A stretch of DNA of 64,000 bases from a bacterium (GTDB lineage Bacteria; Patescibacteriota; Patescibacteriia; Magasanikbacterales; GWA2-37-8): NCBI GenBank assembly GCA_043810165.1, contig JBDROJ010000019.1, positions 17,524 through 81,523 of the forward strand, given 5' to 3'. The notes below the pieces were generated by a model. The model was not told where the DNA came from. It worked only from the letters and a program-made list of their open reading frames with translations, and made no database searches. Of the stretch, positions 6,605 through 43,706 are shown one piece after another. Position 1 is the stretch's first letter; each line of letters begins with the position of its first letter. The translations under genes and the position numbers were made by a program.

Positions 6605-8530
6605 ATGATATCAGTCAAAACTAAAATACTAATCTACCTAATATTTCTGGTATCTTTTTTTTCCTTTACACATCAATCGGTAGCAGCACAAGATTATTGT
6701 ATCGGCTGGTTGGCCAATAAAAATACCATCACATGCCTAGGAGTGTCTCATTACAAAGACTGCCAACCGGTCAGTAACTCCCTAACTAAATATAAAGCGA
6801 TTATTCCCTGGGGTTCAGAGTCACAGCCTACCCCTACTTTACCAAAAGACTTTCACCTACTAACCTCAAATATATATTCTGATGCAACAAAGTGTAATAC
6901 TGCTATTGCCAGTATTAATACAAAAGGATTTTGCGTTCACCACAAAAAAAATAGATGTATATCCAAACACATCGATAGTCCGGCTGACTGTTCCAAGTCA
7001 AATCCTACCAATTACAAAACATATAAAGAGTGCTACGATATACTAACAGGTAAAACAAAAACCACTTGCACCAAACACGCAGACTGTGTAGGTGGCCGCT
7101 TTTGTCTGTTATCTAAGTGTTACGCCATAACCGATTTACATATTCATACAGATAAAAAATGTAAGACGGATAAAGATTGTACTTTTGACAGTAAGCCGGG
7201 AGTCTGTAAATCAATGTATAGTCTTGGCTCTACCGCGTTTTCTGCTGGCAAGTCACCTAATGTGCCTGATGTATACCAAAGCTATTGTTTCCTTCTTGAC
7301 CCTGTTGTCACACCAATAAAAAAAACAATCACCTGGAAATCAAAAATACCTGACATTAGTATTAGAATACCAGGCCTAACCTTTGCTAGCATTCAAGACT
7401 CTATTACATTAGATGATGACGGACGCAAAATTATTAACATTCCTTGGGTCGGTCAATACATAACAGCAGTATATAAATTTGCCTTGGCCTTGGCCAGCGT
7501 AGTGGCTGTAGTTATGTTAATAATTCAAGGCGTAACAATCATGATGTCTGGTGGGGGTGAAGCCAAACAAGGTGCATATAAAAAAATACTACAAATATTT
7601 GTTGGCTTAGGCATAATGTGGGGATCTTATGCTATCTTGTATAATATCAATCCAGACTTGGTTAAATTCAAAGCTTTAGCTGTGACGATGGTTGAAAAAG
7701 AAGAAGCTAAATTTGAATCAGATTCAGTTAATCTTGGTACTGGGTCGGCAGCTGGCTCATCAGCCGCTGGCGCTTCAGGACCAAGTTACTCATCATCTAA
7801 AAATAAATACATAATACCATCTTACAAACAATGGAAGGGTGCTTGGGCCAAAGAAACTTTACCAATGAGCAGTAGCAAAATGAGCAGTAAAGGCTGTGTT
7901 TTTGTCTCTTATGCAATTGCCCTTCAAGCATTATACAATGATGGAACAAACCCATCTTCTTTAAAAAAATTATATACAGATGCTAAACAAGGCGATAATG
8001 TCAATATTGATCTTTACTACCAAAAAGATTTTATGAAAAATAGGTATCCGGGTTTAAAGGTTACTAGGATGAAGCGACCAGCAAAAATCAGCGACTTTAC
8101 CAGTGCCTTGGATCAAGGCAAACTCATAGCAGTCCGTGTTTATACAAGCGCCTTTACAGGCGGAGGACATCAATTTGTTATATATGATTATTATGAAAAA
8201 GGTGGTAAATATTATGTAAAAGTTTCAGACCCAGGCACGGGTGATAGTGCATATACTCGTTGCACCAAGGATATGAGTGGAAAATACGCTAAAGATGACG
8301 CAAAAATAAAAGACAAATTAAAAAAAGATAGAGATTTGAGTGAACAAGGTAAAACTAGTGGGTTCCTATGTGGTGATCCATATAAATTATCTCTTCAATC
8401 ACGTTGCCAGAATACTAATTGTGCTGGCCCAAAAGGAGTGGCTTTTGGACCAAATAATTATCCTTTGGAATACATAATGCGTGTAGGTGTAATGATGAAA
8501 GACTCTTTTGTATTTGAAAGAACTAACTGA
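6605..8530 (+). CDS. Secreted cysteine-rich protein, paralog A. It has an N-terminal signal peptide, Cys-rich repeats, a conserved double-TM hairpin, and a C-terminal papain-like (CHAP/C39-like) Cys...His domain
   Basis: Signal peptide ILIYLIFLVSFFSFTHQSVAA. Cys motifs such as TCTKHADCVGGRFCLLSKCY. The central ~130-aa block TITWKSKIPDISIRIPGLTFASIQ...VYKFALALASVVAVVMLIIQGVTIMMSGGGEAKQGAYKKILQIFVGLGIMWGSYAILYNINPDLVKFKALAVTMVEKEE is nearly identical to the one in the next gene. The C-terminus has GCVFVSYAIAL (candidate nucleophile Cys) and GGGHQFVIYDYY (candidate His). Confidence 0.55.
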   Translation: MISVKTKILIYLIFLVSFFSFTHQSVAAQDYCIGWLANKNTITCLGVSHYKDCQPVSNSLTKYKAIIPWGSESQPTPTLPKDFHLLTSNIYSDATKCNTAIASINTKGFCVHHKKNRCISKHIDSPADCSKSNPTNYKTYKECYDILTGKTKTTCTKHADCVGGRFCLLSKCYAITDLHIHTDKKCKTDKDCTFDSKPGVCKSMYSLGSTAFSAGKSPNVPDVYQSYCFLLDPVVTPIKKTITWKSKIPDISIRIPGLTFASIQDSITLDDDGRKIINIPWVGQYITAVYKFALALASVVAVVMLIIQGVTIMMSGGGEAKQGAYKKILQIFVGLGIMWGSYAILYNINPDLVKFKALAVTMVEKEEAKFESDSVNLGTGSAAGSSAAGASGPSYSSSKNKYIIPSYKQWKGAWAKETLPMSSSKMSSKGCVFVSYAIALQALYNDGTNPSSLKKLYTDAKQGDNVNIDLYYQKDFMKNRYPGLKVTRMKRPAKISDFTSALDQGKLIAVRVYTSAFTGGGHQFVIYDYYEKGGKYYVKVSDPGTGDSAYTRCTKDMSGKYAKDDAKIKDKLKKDRDLSEQGKTSGFLCGDPYKLSLQSRCQNTNCAGPKGVAFGPNNYPLEYIMRVGVMMKDSFVFERTN

Positions 8531-8569: not shown

Positions 8570-10567
8570 TTGTTTAAAAATTTAAAAATGAATTATAATT
8601 TAACAAAAAAACTACTTAATTTTACTTTCCTACTGTTTGTAATTGGTTTTGTTTTTTTATGGACGGGGCAAGTCTTTGCTACCGTTGGATACTGCGCAGT
8701 CTGGAATAGTGTTACAAATAAAAATGAATGTGTAAAAACAAGTGCTGTTAGCTGTGACTCCGCGACTGGCCAATATATACCTTTGCGTAGCCTGTTAATT
8801 GTGAACTTTAATGGCTATACAAAACAAGCTTGTGAAACCGTTCTCAAAAATGTAGAAAACCAAGGCTATTGCGTTTCCCAAGCAACGCAACAATTTAGTA
8901 GTCAATGTGTGTCTCGTTATTTTAATCCATATTTAAAATGTAAAAGCATCATTTACACAGTTTCATTTGGAGAATGTATGCAAGCCCTTAATAAAACTGC
9001 TAGTGCCTGCAAAAAACACAGTGATTGTGTAGGCTATGATAGCTACTGTTTAGGAGGTAAATGTGTTAACACAAAGACGGACTTACAATTTTCCCAAGAG
9101 ACTTGCCACAAAGATTCTGATTGTGTAAAAAATGGTAACCAAGGTATTTGTAACTACAAAGGAATCCCAGGTGGAAAATTTTTAGCAAAATACTACTGCT
9201 ATTATAAAAAAGGAGCTATTACCCCTCAACCAACAAAAACAATAACCTGGAAATCCAAAATACCTGAAATTAGTATCAGAATACCAGGCCTGACCTTTGC
9301 TAGTATTCAAAATTCTATTACTGTAGATACTGATGGACACAAAGTTATTAATATCCCCTGGATCGGACAGTATATAACAGCAGTATATAAATTTGCCTTG
9401 GCCTTGGTCAGTGTAGTGGCTGTGGTTATGTTAATAATTCAAGGTGTAACCATCATGATGTCTGGTGGAGGTGAAGCCAAACAAGGTGCATATAAAAAAA
9501 TACTACAAATATTTGTTGGTCTAGGCATAATGTGGGGCTCTTATGCAATGCTATATAATATTAATCCAGATTTGGTTAAATTTAAAGCTTTGGCTGTGAC
9601 GATGGTTGAAAAAGAAGAATCAACAGAGGAAGTGCCAAACTCGAATGATAATGTAAAATATAATTTAAAAGGAGAAAAAACTTTTGGGCCAATATTAGAA
9701 AAAGTTTCCAAAAAGGTAGGTATAGAATACTGTTTAGTAAGCGCACAGATATCAAGGGAATCTGGCTGGTCAACAGGCGCACATACCTCGTATGCTTTTG
9801 GTTTGGGGCAAGTGAGTTGGTATTATGCTACCACTTTATTATCTAGCCCAACCAAAAAAGCACAGATAGTATCTTACCATTCCAAAAACGACAGCAGTAC
9901 TTATCCGGTAGTACCTAGCGGGTTAACATATGATGCAGACGTTAAATCTCTACCAAAAGATCAAAGAGACGCACTAAAACAAAAAGTGGGTGATTGGCTA
10001 ATGGCTGATGCCGAAGCCAATATTATTATTACGACTTTATCTAAAAAATCAAGCCTCTCAAACACAAGTGCCTTTCATAAAGGCAATCCTATACTAGCCG
10101 CTGTAAATCATTATTATGGAATGGGTGCTTACTCTAAATTCTTAAAAAAAATGAAAGAATACAGGGCCAAAGGTTTAGTATCTGATACACAATGTACTGA
10201 AGCAGGATCTGTTAGCTTAACTGAATTTCTACAAGCTGCCAAAGATGGTAATACCACTAAACTGGAAGATCTTTATAATAAATCCTGCATACCACCCAAC
10301 AAATTCGCTTGGACTAATTATAAAACCAGCGGGGCCATGCCATATTTCTGTCCTCCAACCAAAAAAGGAGATACTATGCAATGTTGTACAAAAGAATCTT
10401 TATCAACTGGGACATGCATAATGCCAACACATACAGCCAATGGTAATAAAGGATTTTGTTTTGATGGTGTTAGAAAAGGTGAACCATGTAACTCAACTGG
10501 AGCTTTAAATTACGTGAAAAAGTACAGCACCTTCCTACAACAATGCTTAAACAGAAAAAAAACGTAA
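8570..10567 (+). CDS. Secreted cysteine-rich protein, paralog B. It has the same central double-TM hairpin as paralog A and a C-terminal lytic transglycosylase (SLT-like) domain
   Basis: Signal peptide FLLFVIGFVFLWTGQVFA. Cys motifs CKKHSDCVGYDSYCLGGKCV and CHKDSDCVKNGNQGICNY. The central block is ~95% identical to paralog A. The C-terminus IEYCLVSAQISRESGWSTGAHTSYAFGLGQV matches the SLT catalytic E-S...GLMQ pattern. Confidence 0.55.
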   Translation: MFKNLKMNYNLTKKLLNFTFLLFVIGFVFLWTGQVFATVGYCAVWNSVTNKNECVKTSAVSCDSATGQYIPLRSLLIVNFNGYTKQACETVLKNVENQGYCVSQATQQFSSQCVSRYFNPYLKCKSIIYTVSFGECMQALNKTASACKKHSDCVGYDSYCLGGKCVNTKTDLQFSQETCHKDSDCVKNGNQGICNYKGIPGGKFLAKYYCYYKKGAITPQPTKTITWKSKIPEISIRIPGLTFASIQNSITVDTDGHKVINIPWIGQYITAVYKFALALVSVVAVVMLIIQGVTIMMSGGGEAKQGAYKKILQIFVGLGIMWGSYAMLYNINPDLVKFKALAVTMVEKEESTEEVPNSNDNVKYNLKGEKTFGPILEKVSKKVGIEYCLVSAQISRESGWSTGAHTSYAFGLGQVSWYYATTLLSSPTKKAQIVSYHSKNDSSTYPVVPSGLTYDADVKSLPKDQRDALKQKVGDWLMADAEANIIITTLSKKSSLSNTSAFHKGNPILAAVNHYYGMGAYSKFLKKMKEYRAKGLVSDTQCTEAGSVSLTEFLQAAKDGNTTKLEDLYNKSCIPPNKFAWTNYKTSGAMPYFCPPTKKGDTMQCCTKESLSTGTCIMPTHTANGNKGFCFDGVRKGEPCNSTGALNYVKKYSTFLQQCLNRKKT

Positions 10568-38487: not shown

Positions 38488-38560
38488 GGGTCGCTAGCTC
38501 AGCTGGTAGAGCAGATCCCTCTTAAGGATAAGGTCCAGGGTTCGAATCCCTGGCGACCCA
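38488..38560 (+). tRNA. tRNA-Lys, anticodon CTT
   Basis: GGGTCGC/GCGACCC acceptor, D-arm GCTCAGCTGGTAGAGC, anticodon loop CTCTTAA, T-arm CAGGGTTCGAATCCCTG. Confidence 0.65.
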
Positions 38561-38564
38561 CAAA

Positions 38565-38592
38565 AATACCGGCTAGTAAGCCGGTATTTTAT
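38565..38592. terminator. Bidirectional rho-independent terminator
   Basis: ataccggc-tagtaa-gccggtat hairpin with T/A runs on both sides. Lies between tRNA-Lys and the convergent gene ending at 38598. Confidence 0.5.
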
Positions 38593-38597
38593 TATGA

Positions 38598-39860
38598 TTA
38601 ATTTTCAGATGATACCGTTTTCCAATCTATCAGGTATAACTTCGATTCATCAAACCTCGGTTCTCTGGGCTTATTAACTTTTGTATCCCAAGGTATAACG
38701 AAATTTCTTGATTCTTGATCATCATGAGTAATGCCCTTGGCTACACACAGATCCTTTATCCTCTGCATCTCTTCGGTAGGACTAAATCCAAAAAAATCTT
38801 CCTCAACTACGGACAACATTTTGCCACCTGTATTACGACTTTCTAGCCTGAAATCTTCACTAAAAGAATCAATCAATTTTTTATATTTATTCTTAAACGC
38901 TTCGCGCTTATCCTTGCCTATGACAGCTTGTATAAGTAAGTTATTGGTAAAATCTTGCCAATTATCAAATCCCAATGTTACAGAACATTGATTGGCCAAG
39001 TCCTCACCGTTTCCAACATGACTGATCACCTCATCAGTACTATCAATACGCTCCTTCATAATTTTTACTTGATTAATCCCAACAACCAAGCCCTTCATAT
39101 GACTAAACAACAAACTCTTTTTAACATTCACACTGTTATCAAGCCATAATTGGTACATATGATCTTTTACCTGTTCAGACAAACAAGTCAAATCATCAAT
39201 ATCAGCTTTAACAGTTTTTTCGCTATGCGATGAAGCAATAAAACTAATATCATCTAAACTAACAATGTTTAAAGATTTATACATCTCATCGTAAGCAGAT
39301 TGCAAATTTATACCTTCGACATGTTGAAAAAAAGCATAGTGATTACCCCAATGTTCAACTTCGCCTAAAACTTTTGGTGTAGGTATGCCGGCTTCATATG
39401 CTTGCCTAGAACGATTTACCTCTCCTTGGCCACGCTCTTCATCTAACCTCTTTACTAATACGAATTTCTTTTTTTCATCTTTATCTACTAATTCTACTTC
39501 TCTGACCTTTGAAGTATCATAATGAACAACGGTAACTAATTCTGACATTTTTCCTTTCTCGGGCAATTTACCTTTAGCGTCTTCACCGCGATAAATATAT
39601 GGTTGGTTTTCAATCCATTCAGTAGGATTATCAAAAAAACTCTGAGGCATTAAATCTGAAATTTCTTGATCTAATTCAATCCTGGTAGGAGCATCCTTTT
39701 CTGATTTATGAAAAACAAAATCTTCATCCAAAGCACAAAGCGAAAAATCTTCTCCTTCTGTCAAATCATCTTCGCCTCCACGAGAAGCCATAATATCTTT
39801 AAATATTTGGTACAAATGTTCTTTATCCATAAAAATACAATTATAATAATTTTTTAACAA
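38598..39860 (-). CDS. Protein-kinase-like (APH/choline-kinase-type) fold protein of unknown substrate
   Basis: N-lobe FVLVKRL (candidate Lys) ... EVNRSRQAYEAGIPTPKVLG. Catalytic-loop-like GITHDDQESRNFVIPWD (an HxDxxxxN pattern). Metal-binding-like LYLIDW (an IDW/DFG equivalent). Confidence 0.45.
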   Translation of the reverse strand: MLKNYYNCIFMDKEHLYQIFKDIMASRGGEDDLTEGEDFSLCALDEDFVFHKSEKDAPTRIELDQEISDLMPQSFFDNPTEWIENQPYIYRGEDAKGKLPEKGKMSELVTVVHYDTSKVREVELVDKDEKKKFVLVKRLDEERGQGEVNRSRQAYEAGIPTPKVLGEVEHWGNHYAFFQHVEGINLQSAYDEMYKSLNIVSLDDISFIASSHSEKTVKADIDDLTCLSEQVKDHMYQLWLDNSVNVKKSLLFSHMKGLVVGINQVKIMKERIDSTDEVISHVGNGEDLANQCSVTLGFDNWQDFTNNLLIQAVIGKDKREAFKNKYKKLIDSFSEDFRLESRNTGGKMLSVVEEDFFGFSPTEEMQRIKDLCVAKGITHDDQESRNFVIPWDTKVNKPREPRFDESKLYLIDWKTVSSEN

Positions 39861-40858
39861 TCGCCAAAAACACCCTCACAGCTACTTATACAAGATTCAT
39901 ACTTATTAGGACTACAAACCGTATTGTAATCTTGCCAACATGATTCATCGCAACCTGCCTCCATACCACAGCCATAAAATATATTATATTTATAACAACC
40001 ACCTCGACATTGTAATAATTGATACATTTTATTAGATGAATACCCATTGCATTTCTCTATAATATCTTTACCACAATTTATTTTACATATATATAATTTT
40101 GAACAAGAGTTACCACTGCCTCCTTGAGGGTTAGTCACTTGAGTTGAACCATCTTCACTCATACCTGGCTTACCTCCACCTTGTGTTGGTATATCTTTAA
40201 TCTGCAGTAAAGATTCTTCGTCTGAGAGAGGTGGCTTGTTCAAAAAATCTACTCTTTTATTTGATTCTGTGCTAGTCTGTAATTCTAATTTTTCTATCTT
40301 TTTGTCCAAGCTATCTTGCTCAGATTTTAATATATTCAATACGGCCTCTTGTTTTGAATCAGAAATTTGATCAACCAAGTCTAAATATTTCTTTTTTTCG
40401 TTGGTTAATTTTAGCTTGAGACGTTGTTTAGATGCCTGTGGAGCCTTATTAAATAATTCTACCAACATTTTCTGATGGTCCTGGTTCTTCTTGACTAATT
40501 TAATTAGTAATTCATCTGACTTGATATCCTTGTCAGGGAACTTTTTAATTTTTAATAAAACTCGATCTATTTCTTTGTCATAATCGCCAGTGACTTTCTC
40601 GGCTATTTCGGTTTTGCCTTTTTTATTCAATGAGTCAATCTCGGCCAATCGTTCTTCGGCTAATTCAATATGCCTTTCTGCCTTAGATTTACCAAAAGTA
40701 AAAAAAGTTCTAACACTCTCTCCAACTCGATCCAAAAAATACCATGGACTATCTGGTAGCATGCCCGGTTTTACTCTTGTATTTGTTTGCGCCAAGGCAG
40801 AAGTACAAAACAATAACAATGTTGCGAAAATTAGACCTAGTATTATCTTTTTAAACAT
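39854..40858 (-). CDS. Secreted coiled-coil protein with a C-terminal cysteine-rich domain
   Basis: Signal peptide MFKKIILGLIFATLLLFCTSALA. Long coiled-coil middle. C-terminal ~80 aa contain ~18 Cys (CSKLYICKINCGKD...CRGGCYKYNIFYGCGMEAGCDESCWQDYNTVCSPNKYESCISSCEGVFGDC). Confidence 0.5.
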   Translation of the reverse strand: MFKKIILGLIFATLLLFCTSALAQTNTRVKPGMLPDSPWYFLDRVGESVRTFFTFGKSKAERHIELAEERLAEIDSLNKKGKTEIAEKVTGDYDKEIDRVLLKIKKFPDKDIKSDELLIKLVKKNQDHQKMLVELFNKAPQASKQRLKLKLTNEKKKYLDLVDQISDSKQEAVLNILKSEQDSLDKKIEKLELQTSTESNKRVDFLNKPPLSDEESLLQIKDIPTQGGGKPGMSEDGSTQVTNPQGGSGNSCSKLYICKINCGKDIIEKCNGYSSNKMYQLLQCRGGCYKYNIFYGCGMEAGCDESCWQDYNTVCSPNKYESCISSCEGVFGDC

Positions 40859-40864
40859 AAAACT

Positions 40865-41494
40865 TTATTTAAATTCTAACATTTTTTGATAAAGACTATT
40901 AATTTTTTTGATCACTTCTTGGTCATTCATAATTTCTTCGCTTTTCTCTATAACCTTATCTACAACCTCTTTATTACCTGCTTCTAATTCAAACCACAGC
41001 TGTCTAATATCTTCTAATCCTATCTTTTTTTTACCGGCATACACTCCTTGGATGGTCTTGTTAAAACGTTTAATTGATTCAACCGACTCACCGCATGGGT
41101 TCTCCAAATAATTAAGCATGGGCAAATACGGCTGGATGTCAAAATGACCAAATAATTCTATATCCAATACACCCAGTATGGCTTGTCTAGTAAACCAATA
41201 TCCACTGCCAACTTTAGTTGAATTAGCATCAATAGACAACTCGTTCAAATTTTTTTTCATGATTCGATTGAAATTTCTATCACACAAAAAATGGACAGCC
41301 CAACCTTTTTTAAAATCAGTATCAGCAAACTCTGGTGACAGGGTGTTGTCATTGTGAGTTAAGTGTCTACCAACTCCAGTAAAACGCCGGCTATCTGGAT
41401 AAACTGCGCCAGAAATATACTTAGTTAGATCCTGAACTCGATACTGGTCTTTTTTGTCCAAAGCGAATTTTATATGAGTAGCTTGCAAAGGCAT
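40865..41494 (-). CDS. Hypothetical protein; weak resemblance to the Zn-dependent phospholipase C / S1-P1 nuclease fold
   Basis: QATHIKFALD ... GWAVHFLCDRNFNRI resemble the His/Asp metal-ligand spacing of PLC-like folds. Low confidence. Confidence 0.3.
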   Translation of the reverse strand: MPLQATHIKFALDKKDQYRVQDLTKYISGAVYPDSRRFTGVGRHLTHNDNTLSPEFADTDFKKGWAVHFLCDRNFNRIMKKNLNELSIDANSTKVGSGYWFTRQAILGVLDIELFGHFDIQPYLPMLNYLENPCGESVESIKRFNKTIQGVYAGKKKIGLEDIRQLWFELEAGNKEVVDKVIEKSEEIMNDQEVIKKINSLYQKMLEFK

Positions 41495-41616
41495 GACAGT
41501 AAATTATGTCTTCTACAATTCTAACATGTGATAGAAAAAAAATCCATCCGGCTAATCTTAAACAAGTAATTATTGACTTTTTCATCTTTATATGATAACT
41601 TTCTAATTAATCTGAT

Positions 41617-41688
41617 GCCCCTGTAGTGAAATGGATATCACAACGGTCTTCGGAACCGTTGTTGGGGGTTCGAATCCTCCCGGGGGCA
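41617..41688 (+). tRNA. tRNA-Arg, anticodon TCG
   Basis: GCCCCTG/CGGGGGC acceptor, D-arm GTGAAATGGATATCAC, anticodon loop CTTCGGA, T-arm GGGGGTTCGAATCCTCC. Confidence 0.6.
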
Positions 41689-41708
41689 CATTTTTTTAAA
41701 TTACCACT

Positions 41709-41963
41709 ATGATTTGGCAAGACATCGCAATTAGTATTGCTGGCGTTGTATTCGCTCTGGCTTTAATACCACAAGTATATTGTGGATTCAAAGAAAAAAG
41801 CGGGCCAATAAAATTACAGACTTCAATACCAACTTTTGTCGGAATATTTATTATAGTCATTGCCTACATTACTCTAACTTTATATCTCTCAGCTTTTATT
41901 TCTTTTCTTACTGGCATACTTTGGTTCTTATTATTCGTACAAAGAATAATTTACAAAAAATAA
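41709..41963 (+). CDS. Small hypothetical membrane protein (two TM)
   Basis: 84 aa, hydrophobic (IAISIAGVVFALALIP...IFIIVIAYITLTLYLSAFISFLTGILWFLLFV). Confidence 0.4.
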   Translation: MIWQDIAISIAGVVFALALIPQVYCGFKEKSGPIKLQTSIPTFVGIFIIVIAYITLTLYLSAFISFLTGILWFLLFVQRIIYKK

Positions 41964-42440: not shown

Positions 42441-43706
42441 CTAAATCAATCTGTTTTGCTGTGGTTTGTTAGTGCCATCCGGCAAAACATCTACCTTACC
42501 AAACTCACCATCATAACCTGGACTGACTTTTACTGCACCAGAGCGCATATTTTTTATGGCTAACCAAATATTTTTGTCACTGACATATTTTTTGATTTCT
42601 TTTTCGGTTGCAGATATTAAGATATGGAATTCATTGCCTATATTTTCGATCATTTGCTGGTATTCTTTTTCTACTTTCTTACTCTTTGGGCCAACAGTAA
42701 AAACGCGACCAATCACTTCACGCAAAGGAACAATGTATCGGTGCGGTATAAACTTTTCTTTTTTTATTTGTTCTTCGTCTCTGTCAGCCAATTCATCAAT
42801 TCGGTGCAAAACTCCAACTGTTAATTTCTTTTTACACTTAGGACAAAGATATTTTTCTTTTTTAGTTTGTTTTGGTTTAAAACAAATTTTACAATCACGA
42901 TGACCATCGTGGTGATACTTTCCTTCTTCTGGATAAAATTCAATTGTATATAAAAATTTTTCTTTGTCACCAGTTTCAATAATTTTTTTAATTTCTTGAT
43001 AAGTAATTTCTTTTTCACTGGCAAAAGCAAAAACATTAGCTTCCCTACCTAGATTATACAAACTATGTGCATCTGAATTTGAAATCAAAGTTATGTTATC
43101 TAGAGAACTTAAACAGTGATTCATTGTTGGATCGCTGGATAAACCAGTCTCAATGGCTTTAATATGTGGGGTTAATTCTTCAAAACATTCTTCTAAACTA
43201 TCGTAGCCAGATTTAGAACCAAAAATAGCAAACCAAGGCGTCCAAGCATGGGCTGGAATCATCATCATATCCTTGTCTATTTCCAAAATAATTTCTAATA
43301 TCTGCTTACCACTCAAACCCATAATAGGACGGCCATCTGATCTGATATTCACTCCTCTATCTTCCAATTCTTTATTGAACTTCTCCACCGCCTTGATATT
43401 TGGAGCCAAAAGCATGAGATGTAAACGTCTGCAAGAATCTTTATGCTTGTAAATACAAGAAATTTCAGTCCCTAAAATAAACCTGGTCTCACTACTATCA
43501 TCTTTTAATTTAAAAATGCCTTGATTCTCTTCTACCAAACTATCTTTAATATGCTCAAACCAATCCGGATGAGTAAAATCAGATGTAGATACTATATCTA
43601 TACCTTTGACCTCACAGGCTTTAGCAATTTTAGGCAACTCCAAATCTTTGGAACAAGAACGGGAATATTTAGAATGTATGTGTAAGTCTACTATTTTTTG
43701 AATCAT
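42441..43706 (-). CDS. PHP-domain protein with a C-terminal zinc finger (TIGR00375 / endonuclease-Q-like)
   Basis: N-terminal VDLHIHSKYSRSCS PHP motif with further His/Asp metal ligands (HAWTPW, NSDAHS). CPKCKKKLTVGVLHRIDE with an upstream C..C forms a Cys4 ribbon. 421 aa. Confidence 0.5.
   Translation of the reverse strand: MIQKIVDLHIHSKYSRSCSKDLELPKIAKACEVKGIDIVSTSDFTHPDWFEHIKDSLVEENQGIFKLKDDSSETRFILGTEISCIYKHKDSCRRLHLMLLAPNIKAVEKFNKELEDRGVNIRSDGRPIMGLSGKQILEIILEIDKDMMMIPAHAWTPWFAIFGSKSGYDSLEECFEELTPHIKAIETGLSSDPTMNHCLSSLDNITLISNSDAHSLYNLGREANVFAFASEKEITYQEIKKIIETGDKEKFLYTIEFYPEEGKYHHDGHRDCKICFKPKQTKKEKYLCPKCKKKLTVGVLHRIDELADRDEEQIKKEKFIPHRYIVPLREVIGRVFTVGPKSKKVEKEYQQMIENIGNEFHILISATEKEIKKYVSDKNIWLAIKNMRSGAVKVSPGYDGEFGKVDVLPDGTNKPQQNRLI

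Follow-up and report, generated by a model that had tools for sequence, protein, structure and literature searches.

We analyzed three co-directional genes on the minus strand of a 64,000-nt stretch of contig JBDROJ010000019.1 (the window, meaning this stretch at its full length), which belongs to a low-GC, Patescibacteria-like metagenome-assembled genome (MAG) of the candidate phyla radiation (CPR). The last of the three genes encodes a member of an unnamed family of ~400-aa proteins within the protein-kinase-like superfamily, closest to the APH, Kdo/WaaP and Bud32 families. An initial annotation had interpreted the genes as an effector/maturation pair, with an exported cysteine-rich protein and a kinase-like enzyme acting together, or as a CotH-type spore-coat system. 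We favor, with moderate confidence, the explanation that the three genes are adjacent through genome compactness and are functionally independent. In GenBank, where the three products are recorded from a single 85.5-kb contig, those of genes 1 and 3 are labeled hypothetical, the latter with 410 aa, and that of gene 2 is labeled DUF5667 domain-containing. The genes are:

40865 to 41494, minus strand: gene 1 (MFH1291835.1), 209 aa, predicted cytoplasmic, with a weak zinc-phospholipase-C/P1-nuclease-like signature
39854 to 40858, minus strand: gene 2 (MFH1291834.1), 334 aa, a predicted exported DUF5667 protein
38598 to 39830, minus strand: gene 3 (MFH1291833.1), 410 aa, a predicted cytoplasmic protein-kinase-like phosphotransferase (420 aa if translation instead began at TTG 39860)

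Our preference for functional independence comes from gene neighborhoods in other genomes. Twenty loci were fetched around homologues of gene 1 and gene 3; a profile search of genome contigs with an early alignment of the gene 3 family (A1) gave three loci. When the three window proteins were compared with the 20 fetched loci by tblastn, each locus held at most one of these families, and none contained a relative of gene 2. The surroundings of the two families were as follows:

L001, L007 and L010, gene 3 family: flanked by ClpB and a 131-aa gene and, on the opposite side, by a 112-aa gene and RsmH-MraZ
L009, gene 3 family: a ZIP transporter and a PD-(D/E)XK-like gene
L015 (1486 to 5281), gene 3 family: SerA-SerC directly upstream, EamA downstream
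L019, gene 3 family: the L27 region
L020 (886 to 4092), gene 3 family: TIM-GAPDH directly upstream (10-nt gap), HypC-thioredoxin downstream
L003 and L004, gene 1 family: glycosyltransferases upstream, a phosphoenolpyruvate (PEP)-utilizing enzyme downstream
L005, gene 1 family: enolase-iPGM-iPGM directly upstream
L011, gene 1 family: a C39 peptidase and HicA
L017 (2594 to 4630) and L018 (3148 to 4621), gene 1 family: NUDIX, then a 137-aa protein, then the 209-aa homologue

Given such varying neighbors and the absence of any locus with two of the families, the three genes most likely are functionally independent rather than an effector/maturation pair.

Several features of these loci are of interest in their own right. 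The 137-aa protein is 77% identical between L017 and L018, making NUDIX-137 aa-209 aa a conserved run, and L017 also has a dCMP/cytidine deaminase gene downstream, which hints at nucleotide metabolism for the gene 1 family. The placement of gene 3 homologues after TIM-GAPDH in L020 and after SerA-SerC in L015 raises a possible metabolic association. A gene 3 family member also is present in L008 (CAZPAP010000012.1), which is labeled 'uncultured Gammaproteobacteria'; since it shares its gene order with L007, a contig labeled Patescibacteria group bacterium, L008 may be mis-binned or mislabeled.

These contexts also bear on a different arrangement, in which genes 1 and 3 are linked without gene 2, as a metal-dependent phosphoesterase and a metabolite kinase acting on the same phosphorylated small molecules (three-carbon phospho-acids, nucleotides) in the reduced metabolism of CPR bacteria. 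In addition to the two placements of gene 3 homologues directly after metabolic gene pairs (L020, L015), gene 1 homologues follow enolase-iPGM-iPGM (L005), precede the PEP-utilizing enzyme (L003) and follow NUDIX and the 137-aa gene (L017, L018), such that, for each family, roughly two of the five to six contexts have genes for lower glycolysis, three-carbon compounds or nucleotides next to it, and the families lie 1 kb apart in this window. However, this is a post-hoc pattern drawn from five to six contexts per family, the remaining contexts are unrelated to metabolism, and the two families never occur together in the 20 other loci. We therefore regard a link between genes 1 and 3 as unlikely.

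The assignment of gene 3 is the firmest result for the cluster. Only two relatives, 32-33% identical, came from a word-indexed homology search. When 1.84 billion cluster representatives were searched exhaustively with an HMMER profile, 140 proteins were returned at E ≤ 0.001, 72 of them at E ≤ 1e-30, with most relatives 400-450 aa in length and matched end to end. The family comprises at least 140 representatives at 50% identity, and those named in the databases are mainly from Patescibacteria. With residues numbered according to the 410-aa form, K127, D371, N376, D402 and W403 are invariant in an alignment of 49 family members (A2), and ≥90% of these sequences retain E137, H369, R375 and E404. 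K127 and E137 correspond to the β3 lysine and αC glutamate pair of the protein-kinase-like superfamily. H369-x-D371-x4-N376 corresponds to the H-x-D-x4-N catalytic loop, which aligned with the CK2 catalytic loop in a weak profile match to the PDB, and D402, found in 'IDW[E]', corresponds to the metal-binding aspartate (the DFG equivalent). The kinase motifs that the initial annotation had recognized in the single sequence, namely 'VKRL' (K127), 'THDDQESRN' (H369, D371 and N376) and 'IDW' (D402-W403), thus are invariant or nearly so across the 49 sequences.

Matches to described kinase families were recurrent among the relatives. Pfam APH was matched by 20 of the 49 family members (best E = 4.7e-6) and Kdo/WaaP by four, and the seven NCBIfam families matched (Bud32, TIGR02172, RfaP, APH(3'), APH(3')-II, Kdo kinase and LegK1) all are kinases. 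The gene 3 protein itself had no Pfam kinase match at E ≤ 1, and its sole NCBIfam match was to Bud32, over residues 125-209, with 17 bits against a cut-off of 125 (E = 0.0028). In phmmer and profile searches of the PDB with genes 3 and 1, nothing significant was found beyond the weak match to the CK2 loop and matches to some de novo designs. An hhalign comparison of the family with an approximate APH(3')-IIa sequence aligned the N-lobe only and weakly (E = 0.0073, probability 5%), though in an agreeing register, with the 'SKRI' stretch paired with 'FVKTD'. A literature search on CPR kinase-like proteins returned nothing.

Three relatives depart from the usual length or composition. P0056 (735 aa), a variant within the family, is lengthened at its N-terminus by 320 aa that match nothing in Pfam; P0171 (801 aa), a distant relative, is fused to a calcineurin-like phosphoesterase; and P0125 (399 aa), another distant relative (E = 2.8e-20 to the family profile), scores above the Pfam Kdo/WaaP cut-off (38.7 versus 21.3 bits) and, as judged from its sequence by BLASTP, has no counterpart of the helical insert described below.

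AlphaFold2 gave a confident model when supplied with the 49-sequence alignment (mean predicted local distance difference test score (pLDDT) of 91.3, predicted template modeling score of 0.86), compared to a pLDDT of 49 with three sequences only. In the confident model, K127 lies in strand 121-129, E137 in helix 134-146, and the catalytic loop follows helix 351-364. The top 50 Foldseek matches in the PDB consisted entirely of protein kinases and APH(3')-IIb; the best probability was 0.99, with E values of 6e-3 or worse and TM scores of 0.13-0.25 over 98-186 aligned columns; the matches in a viral structure library also were mostly kinases. Over these columns, the structure search agreed with the kinase-like label of the initial annotation, with no other fold among the top 50 PDB matches. 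The predicted parts of the protein are:

39507 to 39716, minus strand: N-terminal extension, aa 39-108, delimited in alignments A1 and A2
39306 to 39506, minus strand: kinase N-lobe, aa 109-175, with K127 at nt 39450 to 39452, and E137
38790 to 39305, minus strand: variable, all-helical insert of ~170 aa, aa 176-347, from the hinge to the catalytic loop, based on AlphaFold2 secondary structure
38601 to 38789, minus strand: catalytic segment, aa 348-410, with HxDxxxxN at nt 38703 to 38726 and D402-W403 at nt 38622 to 38627

The most conserved motif of the family, 'FFxNPTxWIE', is carried by the N-terminal extension, where the pLDDT is 94-98 for aa 41-80. In the model, the N-lobe is composed of strands 109-115, 121-129, 154-160 and 163-169 together with helix 134-146, and the insert that follows shows low conservation in A2. 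The chain stops eight residues past D402; the usual C-terminal kinase helices are therefore missing.

Gene 3 thus shares with the APH/choline-kinase-type (PF01636) and Kdo/WaaP (PF06293) families the β3 lysine-αC glutamate pair within a modeled kinase N-lobe, as well as the H-x-D-x4-N loop followed ~25 residues on by a metal-binding aspartate in 'I-D-W/F-E', and the weak Pfam and NCBIfam matches of many relatives, along with the P0125 score, point in the same direction. It differs in the ~100-aa conserved N-terminal extension, the ~170-aa helical insert and the lack of the usual C-terminal helices, as well as in superposing over 100-190 columns only and in having no Pfam kinase match of its own. 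It also has no glycine in the β1-β2 nucleotide loop, neither in the 'DKDEKKK' of the window protein (aa 116-122) nor in the family consensus. APH and Kdo members too deviate from the glycine-rich nucleotide loop.

With this layout, the enzyme most likely would bind ATP-Mg between its N-lobe, which is canonical, and its C-lobe, which is reduced, and would pass the γ-phosphate to a hydroxyl group of a substrate. We infer that a small molecule is a more likely substrate than a protein because of the APH/Kdo-type motifs and the occurrence of some homologues among metabolic genes.

The alternative is that gene 3 encodes a Bud32/RIO-type regulatory protein kinase or ATPase, acting on a housekeeping protein or an RNA-modification complex. 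Bud32 is the most frequent NCBIfam match in the family (seven of 49), as well as the only one for the window protein, the top Foldseek matches are eukaryotic-type protein kinases, and some homologues are encoded among housekeeping genes (RsmH-MraZ, L27, L9). The reduced C-lobe without an activation segment likewise resembles these minimal kinases. Yet the matches fall far below the curated cut-offs, the gene 3 protein is twice as long, its named relatives are mainly from Patescibacteria, and no KEOPS partner genes are nearby. The small-molecule branch also is favored by the motif of 'IDWE' type and by the Pfam matches to APH and Kdo. Taken together, we consider a Bud32/RIO-type role improbable.

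The product of gene 2 can be divided into three regions:

40790 to 40858, minus strand: Sec-type signal peptide, aa 1-23, by sequence inspection and hydropathy
40439 to 40765, minus strand: DUF5667 domain (PF18915), aa 32-140, Pfam E = 1.8e-18
39857 to 40105, minus strand: Cys-rich module, aa 252-334 (83 residues, 13 of them cysteine), preceded by a Gly/Ser/Pro-rich linker

The N-terminus consists of MFKK, a 13-residue hydrophobic core and ALA|Q, in agreement with the initial annotation of this middle protein as exported. The DUF5667 match (67.2 bits versus a cut-off of 27) covers profile positions 1-97 of 99. As in other DUF5667 proteins, the signal peptide of gene 2 precedes a domain that opens with 'PGxLPDSPxYxL' and is matched at full length above threshold; what sets gene 2 apart from them is its C-terminal double six-cysteine module, for which there is no Pfam model and no relative was detected. 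A literature search on DUF5667 returned nothing. Residues 56-215 are rich in Lys, Glu and Leu. This region had been described as mostly coiled coil, a description that we could not support, since a crude Fourier test gave no heptad (3.5-residue) periodicity above that of shuffled sequences (the observed value was reached by a fraction of 0.25-0.77 of the shuffles). Power at a period of 3.6 was higher than at 3.5, a comparison made without shuffles. The gene 2 product would be a Sec-exported helical DUF5667 protein with a lineage-specific, two-repeat Cys tail.

The Cys-rich end of ~80 residues noted in the initial annotation is present, with 13 rather than ~18 cysteines. These are spaced C-x5-C-x3-C-x7-C-x13-C-x3-C-x8-C-x5-C-x3-C-x7-C-x7-C-x3-C-x6-C, which we read as two tandem units of C-x5-C-x3-C-x7-C-x(13 or 7)-C-x3-C, with two CX3C motifs each, plus a C-terminal cysteine. 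The module gave no Pfam match at E ≤ 10 and has no paralogue within the window, and neither the module nor the whole gene 2 protein had relatives in two metagenome scans. A word-index search also returned no relatives of the module, a weak negative given that the search missed the parent protein itself. From its CX3C pattern, the tail probably is disulfide-stapled, as helical hairpins, or metal-binding outside the cell, and probably is lineage-specific.

Two other exported Cys-rich proteins are encoded in the window, by 6605 to 8530 and 8570 to 10567 (both plus strand). These tandem paralogues of 641 and 665 aa are 47% identical over ~360 aa. Each has an N-terminus resembling a signal peptide, a Cys-rich N-terminal domain (21 and 26 Cys) and the common membrane block 'GGGEAKQGAYKKILQIFVGLG'; their C-terminal domains differ, and neither protein has a Pfam match. 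They are unrelated to the Cys tail of gene 2. Extracellular Cys-rich domains therefore are not unique to gene 2 in this organism.

We considered whether the exported Cys-rich DUF5667 protein is modified, or helped to mature, by the kinase-like enzyme in the manner of CotH or Fam20, with the pair acting in host or episymbiont interaction. The two genes are neighbors in one orientation, no terminator separates them, the gene 2 product is predicted to be exported and has an unusual, lineage-specific module, and CPR bacteria often are episymbionts. CotH spore-coat and Fam20 secretory kinases are themselves atypical kinase folds able to act on secreted or coat proteins. By sequence inspection, the gene 3 product has no export signal, as its N-terminus, 'MDKEHLYQIFKDIMASRGGEDD', is acidic and without a hydrophobic segment, and neither it nor its relatives matched CotH, Fam20 or HipA in the Pfam or NCBIfam results. 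There also is no conserved exported neighbor: in their six other contexts, the gene 3 homologues never lie beside a DUF5667 or Cys-rich gene, and a Cys tail without a detectable relative cannot be the conserved partner of a kinase-like family with 140 representatives. With no export signal, no family matches and no conserved pairing, neither the effector/maturation pair nor the CotH-type spore-coat system was borne out, and we judge a maturation role for gene 3 to be highly improbable.

For gene 1, 35 homologues were found, with 29-51% identity in the alignment. This is a small family, whose named members are mostly from Patescibacteria; they derive from Magasanikbacteria, Falkowbacteria and 'Patescibacteria group' MAGs, together with one Olavius-associated deltaproteobacterium. 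In the family alignment (A3), H7, Y32-P33-D34-S35-R36, R43, H47, G64-W65, H68 and D72 are invariant. The 'PLC-like' label given to gene 1 in the initial annotation, for phospholipase C (PLC), reflects a weak resemblance that recurs in the family, as 17 of 34 relatives matched PF00882 (Zn_dep_PLPC) below threshold, in the region where the two correspond. Membership of PF00882 did not follow, with a best score of 18.3 bits against a gathering score of 26.8, and the gene 1 protein itself had no match to this Pfam family.

In Bacillus cereus PLC, the metal ligands are H14, D55, H69 and H118-x3-D122, with H128, H142 and E146 as ligands of the third zinc. The H...D...H...H-x3-D pattern of gene 1 recalls the first two zinc sites of this enzyme: an N-terminal 'THxxF' histidine, invariant D34 and H47, and H68-x3-D72, in which the H-x3-D spacing agrees. 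The gene 1 protein differs from PLC/P1 nuclease in being shorter and cytoplasmic, in matching below the gathering score and in having no evident counterparts of the third-zinc ligands. Based on this pattern, gene 1 probably encodes a small cytoplasmic metallo-phosphoesterase, in which the H...D...H...HxxxD residues would form a site like the dinuclear metal site of PLC/P1 nuclease.

The three minus-strand ORFs (40865 to 41494, 209 aa; 39854 to 40858, 334 aa; 38598 to 39860, 420 aa from TTG) and the 6-nt spacing between genes 1 and 2 agreed with the initial annotation, as did the bracketing of the cluster by tRNA-Arg and a bidirectional terminator; tRNA-Lys, directly beyond the latter, had not been mentioned. 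The boundaries and signals of the locus are:

41617 to 41689, plus strand: tRNA-Arg (anticodon TCG; ARAGORN), the upstream boundary, on the strand opposite to gene 1
41495 to 41616, minus strand: intergenic region 5' of gene 1, with two weak σ70-like sites (41598 to 41569 and 41532 to 41503)
39840 to 39867, minus strand: the top promoter-like site of the region, TTGGCG-16-TATAAT, with 10 of 12 consensus matches, inside the end of gene 2
38563 to 38590, both strands: bidirectional intrinsic-terminator-like hairpin, with a perfect 12-bp stem, a 4-nt loop and flanking A and T runs
38488 to 38561, plus strand: tRNA-Lys (anticodon CTT; ARAGORN), the downstream boundary of the cluster

In the consensus scan, the two sites before gene 1 each matched at nine of 12 positions. 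The hairpin sits between the gene 3 stop codon and tRNA-Lys, is common to both and could serve both strands. No terminator-like site was found on the minus strand between the three genes in a scan of the region, so their co-transcription is possible. Promoter-like and terminator-like sites were no more numerous in the region than expected from shuffled sequence.

The 7-nt overlap of genes 2 and 3 described in the initial annotation exists only if TTG 39860 is used, and GenBank instead picks ATG 39830. Among 43 start sites in the window, there is almost no Shine-Dalgarno sequence, and the upstream sequence is uniformly AT-rich, often with TATAAT 9-15 nt before the ATG. The sequence preceding ATG 39830, 'TTATTATAATTGTATTTTT ATG', matches this pattern, whereas TTG 39860 is preceded by GC-rich coding sequence and departs from it. 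Therefore, gene 3 most likely starts at ATG 39830 and encodes 410 aa, leaving a 23-nt gap after gene 2 in place of the overlap. Since the promoter-like site at 39867 to 39840 ends 9 nt before this ATG, gene 3 may have its own promoter, which would allow separate transcription. Across the window as a whole, the scarcity of Shine-Dalgarno sequences and the closeness of TATAAT to the ATG suggest short-leader or leaderless mRNAs in this organism.

The genes around the cluster are housekeeping genes (FemAB, NusB, RNase III, citrate-synthase-like and CoA-ligase). A mobile island at the tRNA was rejected, as there was no GC anomaly (values were within the local range) and no att-like repeat, the sole shared repeat being a generic T-loop 12-mer. 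An origin as a defense system or from a phage also was rejected, given no defense-system or phage-family matches and no viral relatives.

Several observations weigh against the view that three independent genes, one of them for a kinase-like enzyme and one for a phosphoesterase, simply lie next to each other. Tight packing (6-nt and 23-nt gaps) on one strand, without an inner terminator and with a single closing hairpin, makes co-transcription, and hence some functional link, possible. The neighborhoods sampled amount to about six distinct contexts per family, none from close relatives of this MAG. For gene 3, the kinase superpositions span only ~100-190 columns with TM scores of 0.13-0.25, so that the C-lobe architecture is a predicted one, and the β1-β2 loop is without glycine; for gene 1, the assignment depends on sub-threshold Pfam matches only.

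If the reading given in the initial annotation were true, an episymbiotic bacterium would possess a previously undescribed system of secreted effector and kinase, but the evidence points otherwise. What stands is a well-supported, unnamed protein-kinase-like family without a Pfam model, mainly from Patescibacteria where its members are named. Its unusual layout combines a conserved N-terminal extension, a ~170-aa helical insert and a chain end right after the metal-binding aspartate. As a new branch, of modest interest, within a known superfamily, it would add one entry to the atypical kinases, and, if the metabolic lead is true, it could help explain gaps in CPR metabolism. A far-reaching version of that lead is that the gene 3 family is a metabolite kinase that supplies a missing step of the reduced central metabolism in Patescibacteria, acting perhaps on a three-carbon hydroxy-acid or serine, with gene 1 as the matching phosphoesterase, such that their proximity in the window would be a real metabolic link, and with the inserted helical domain replacing the missing C-terminal helices in a new kinase architecture; we regard this as a long shot. 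The orphan double six-cysteine module and the PLC-like gene 1 family are minor curiosities.

We also noted two ORFs near the cluster, neither with a Pfam match at E ≤ 0.001. The 84-aa ORF at 41709 to 41963 (plus strand), directly after tRNA-Arg, has three hydrophobic segments and a 'PQ' motif, and by eye appears SemiSWEET/PQ-loop-like. The 421-aa ORF at 42441 to 43706 (minus strand) starts with a PHP-like 'DLHIHSKYS', carries a CxxC...CxxC cluster and, again by eye, resembles endonuclease Q.

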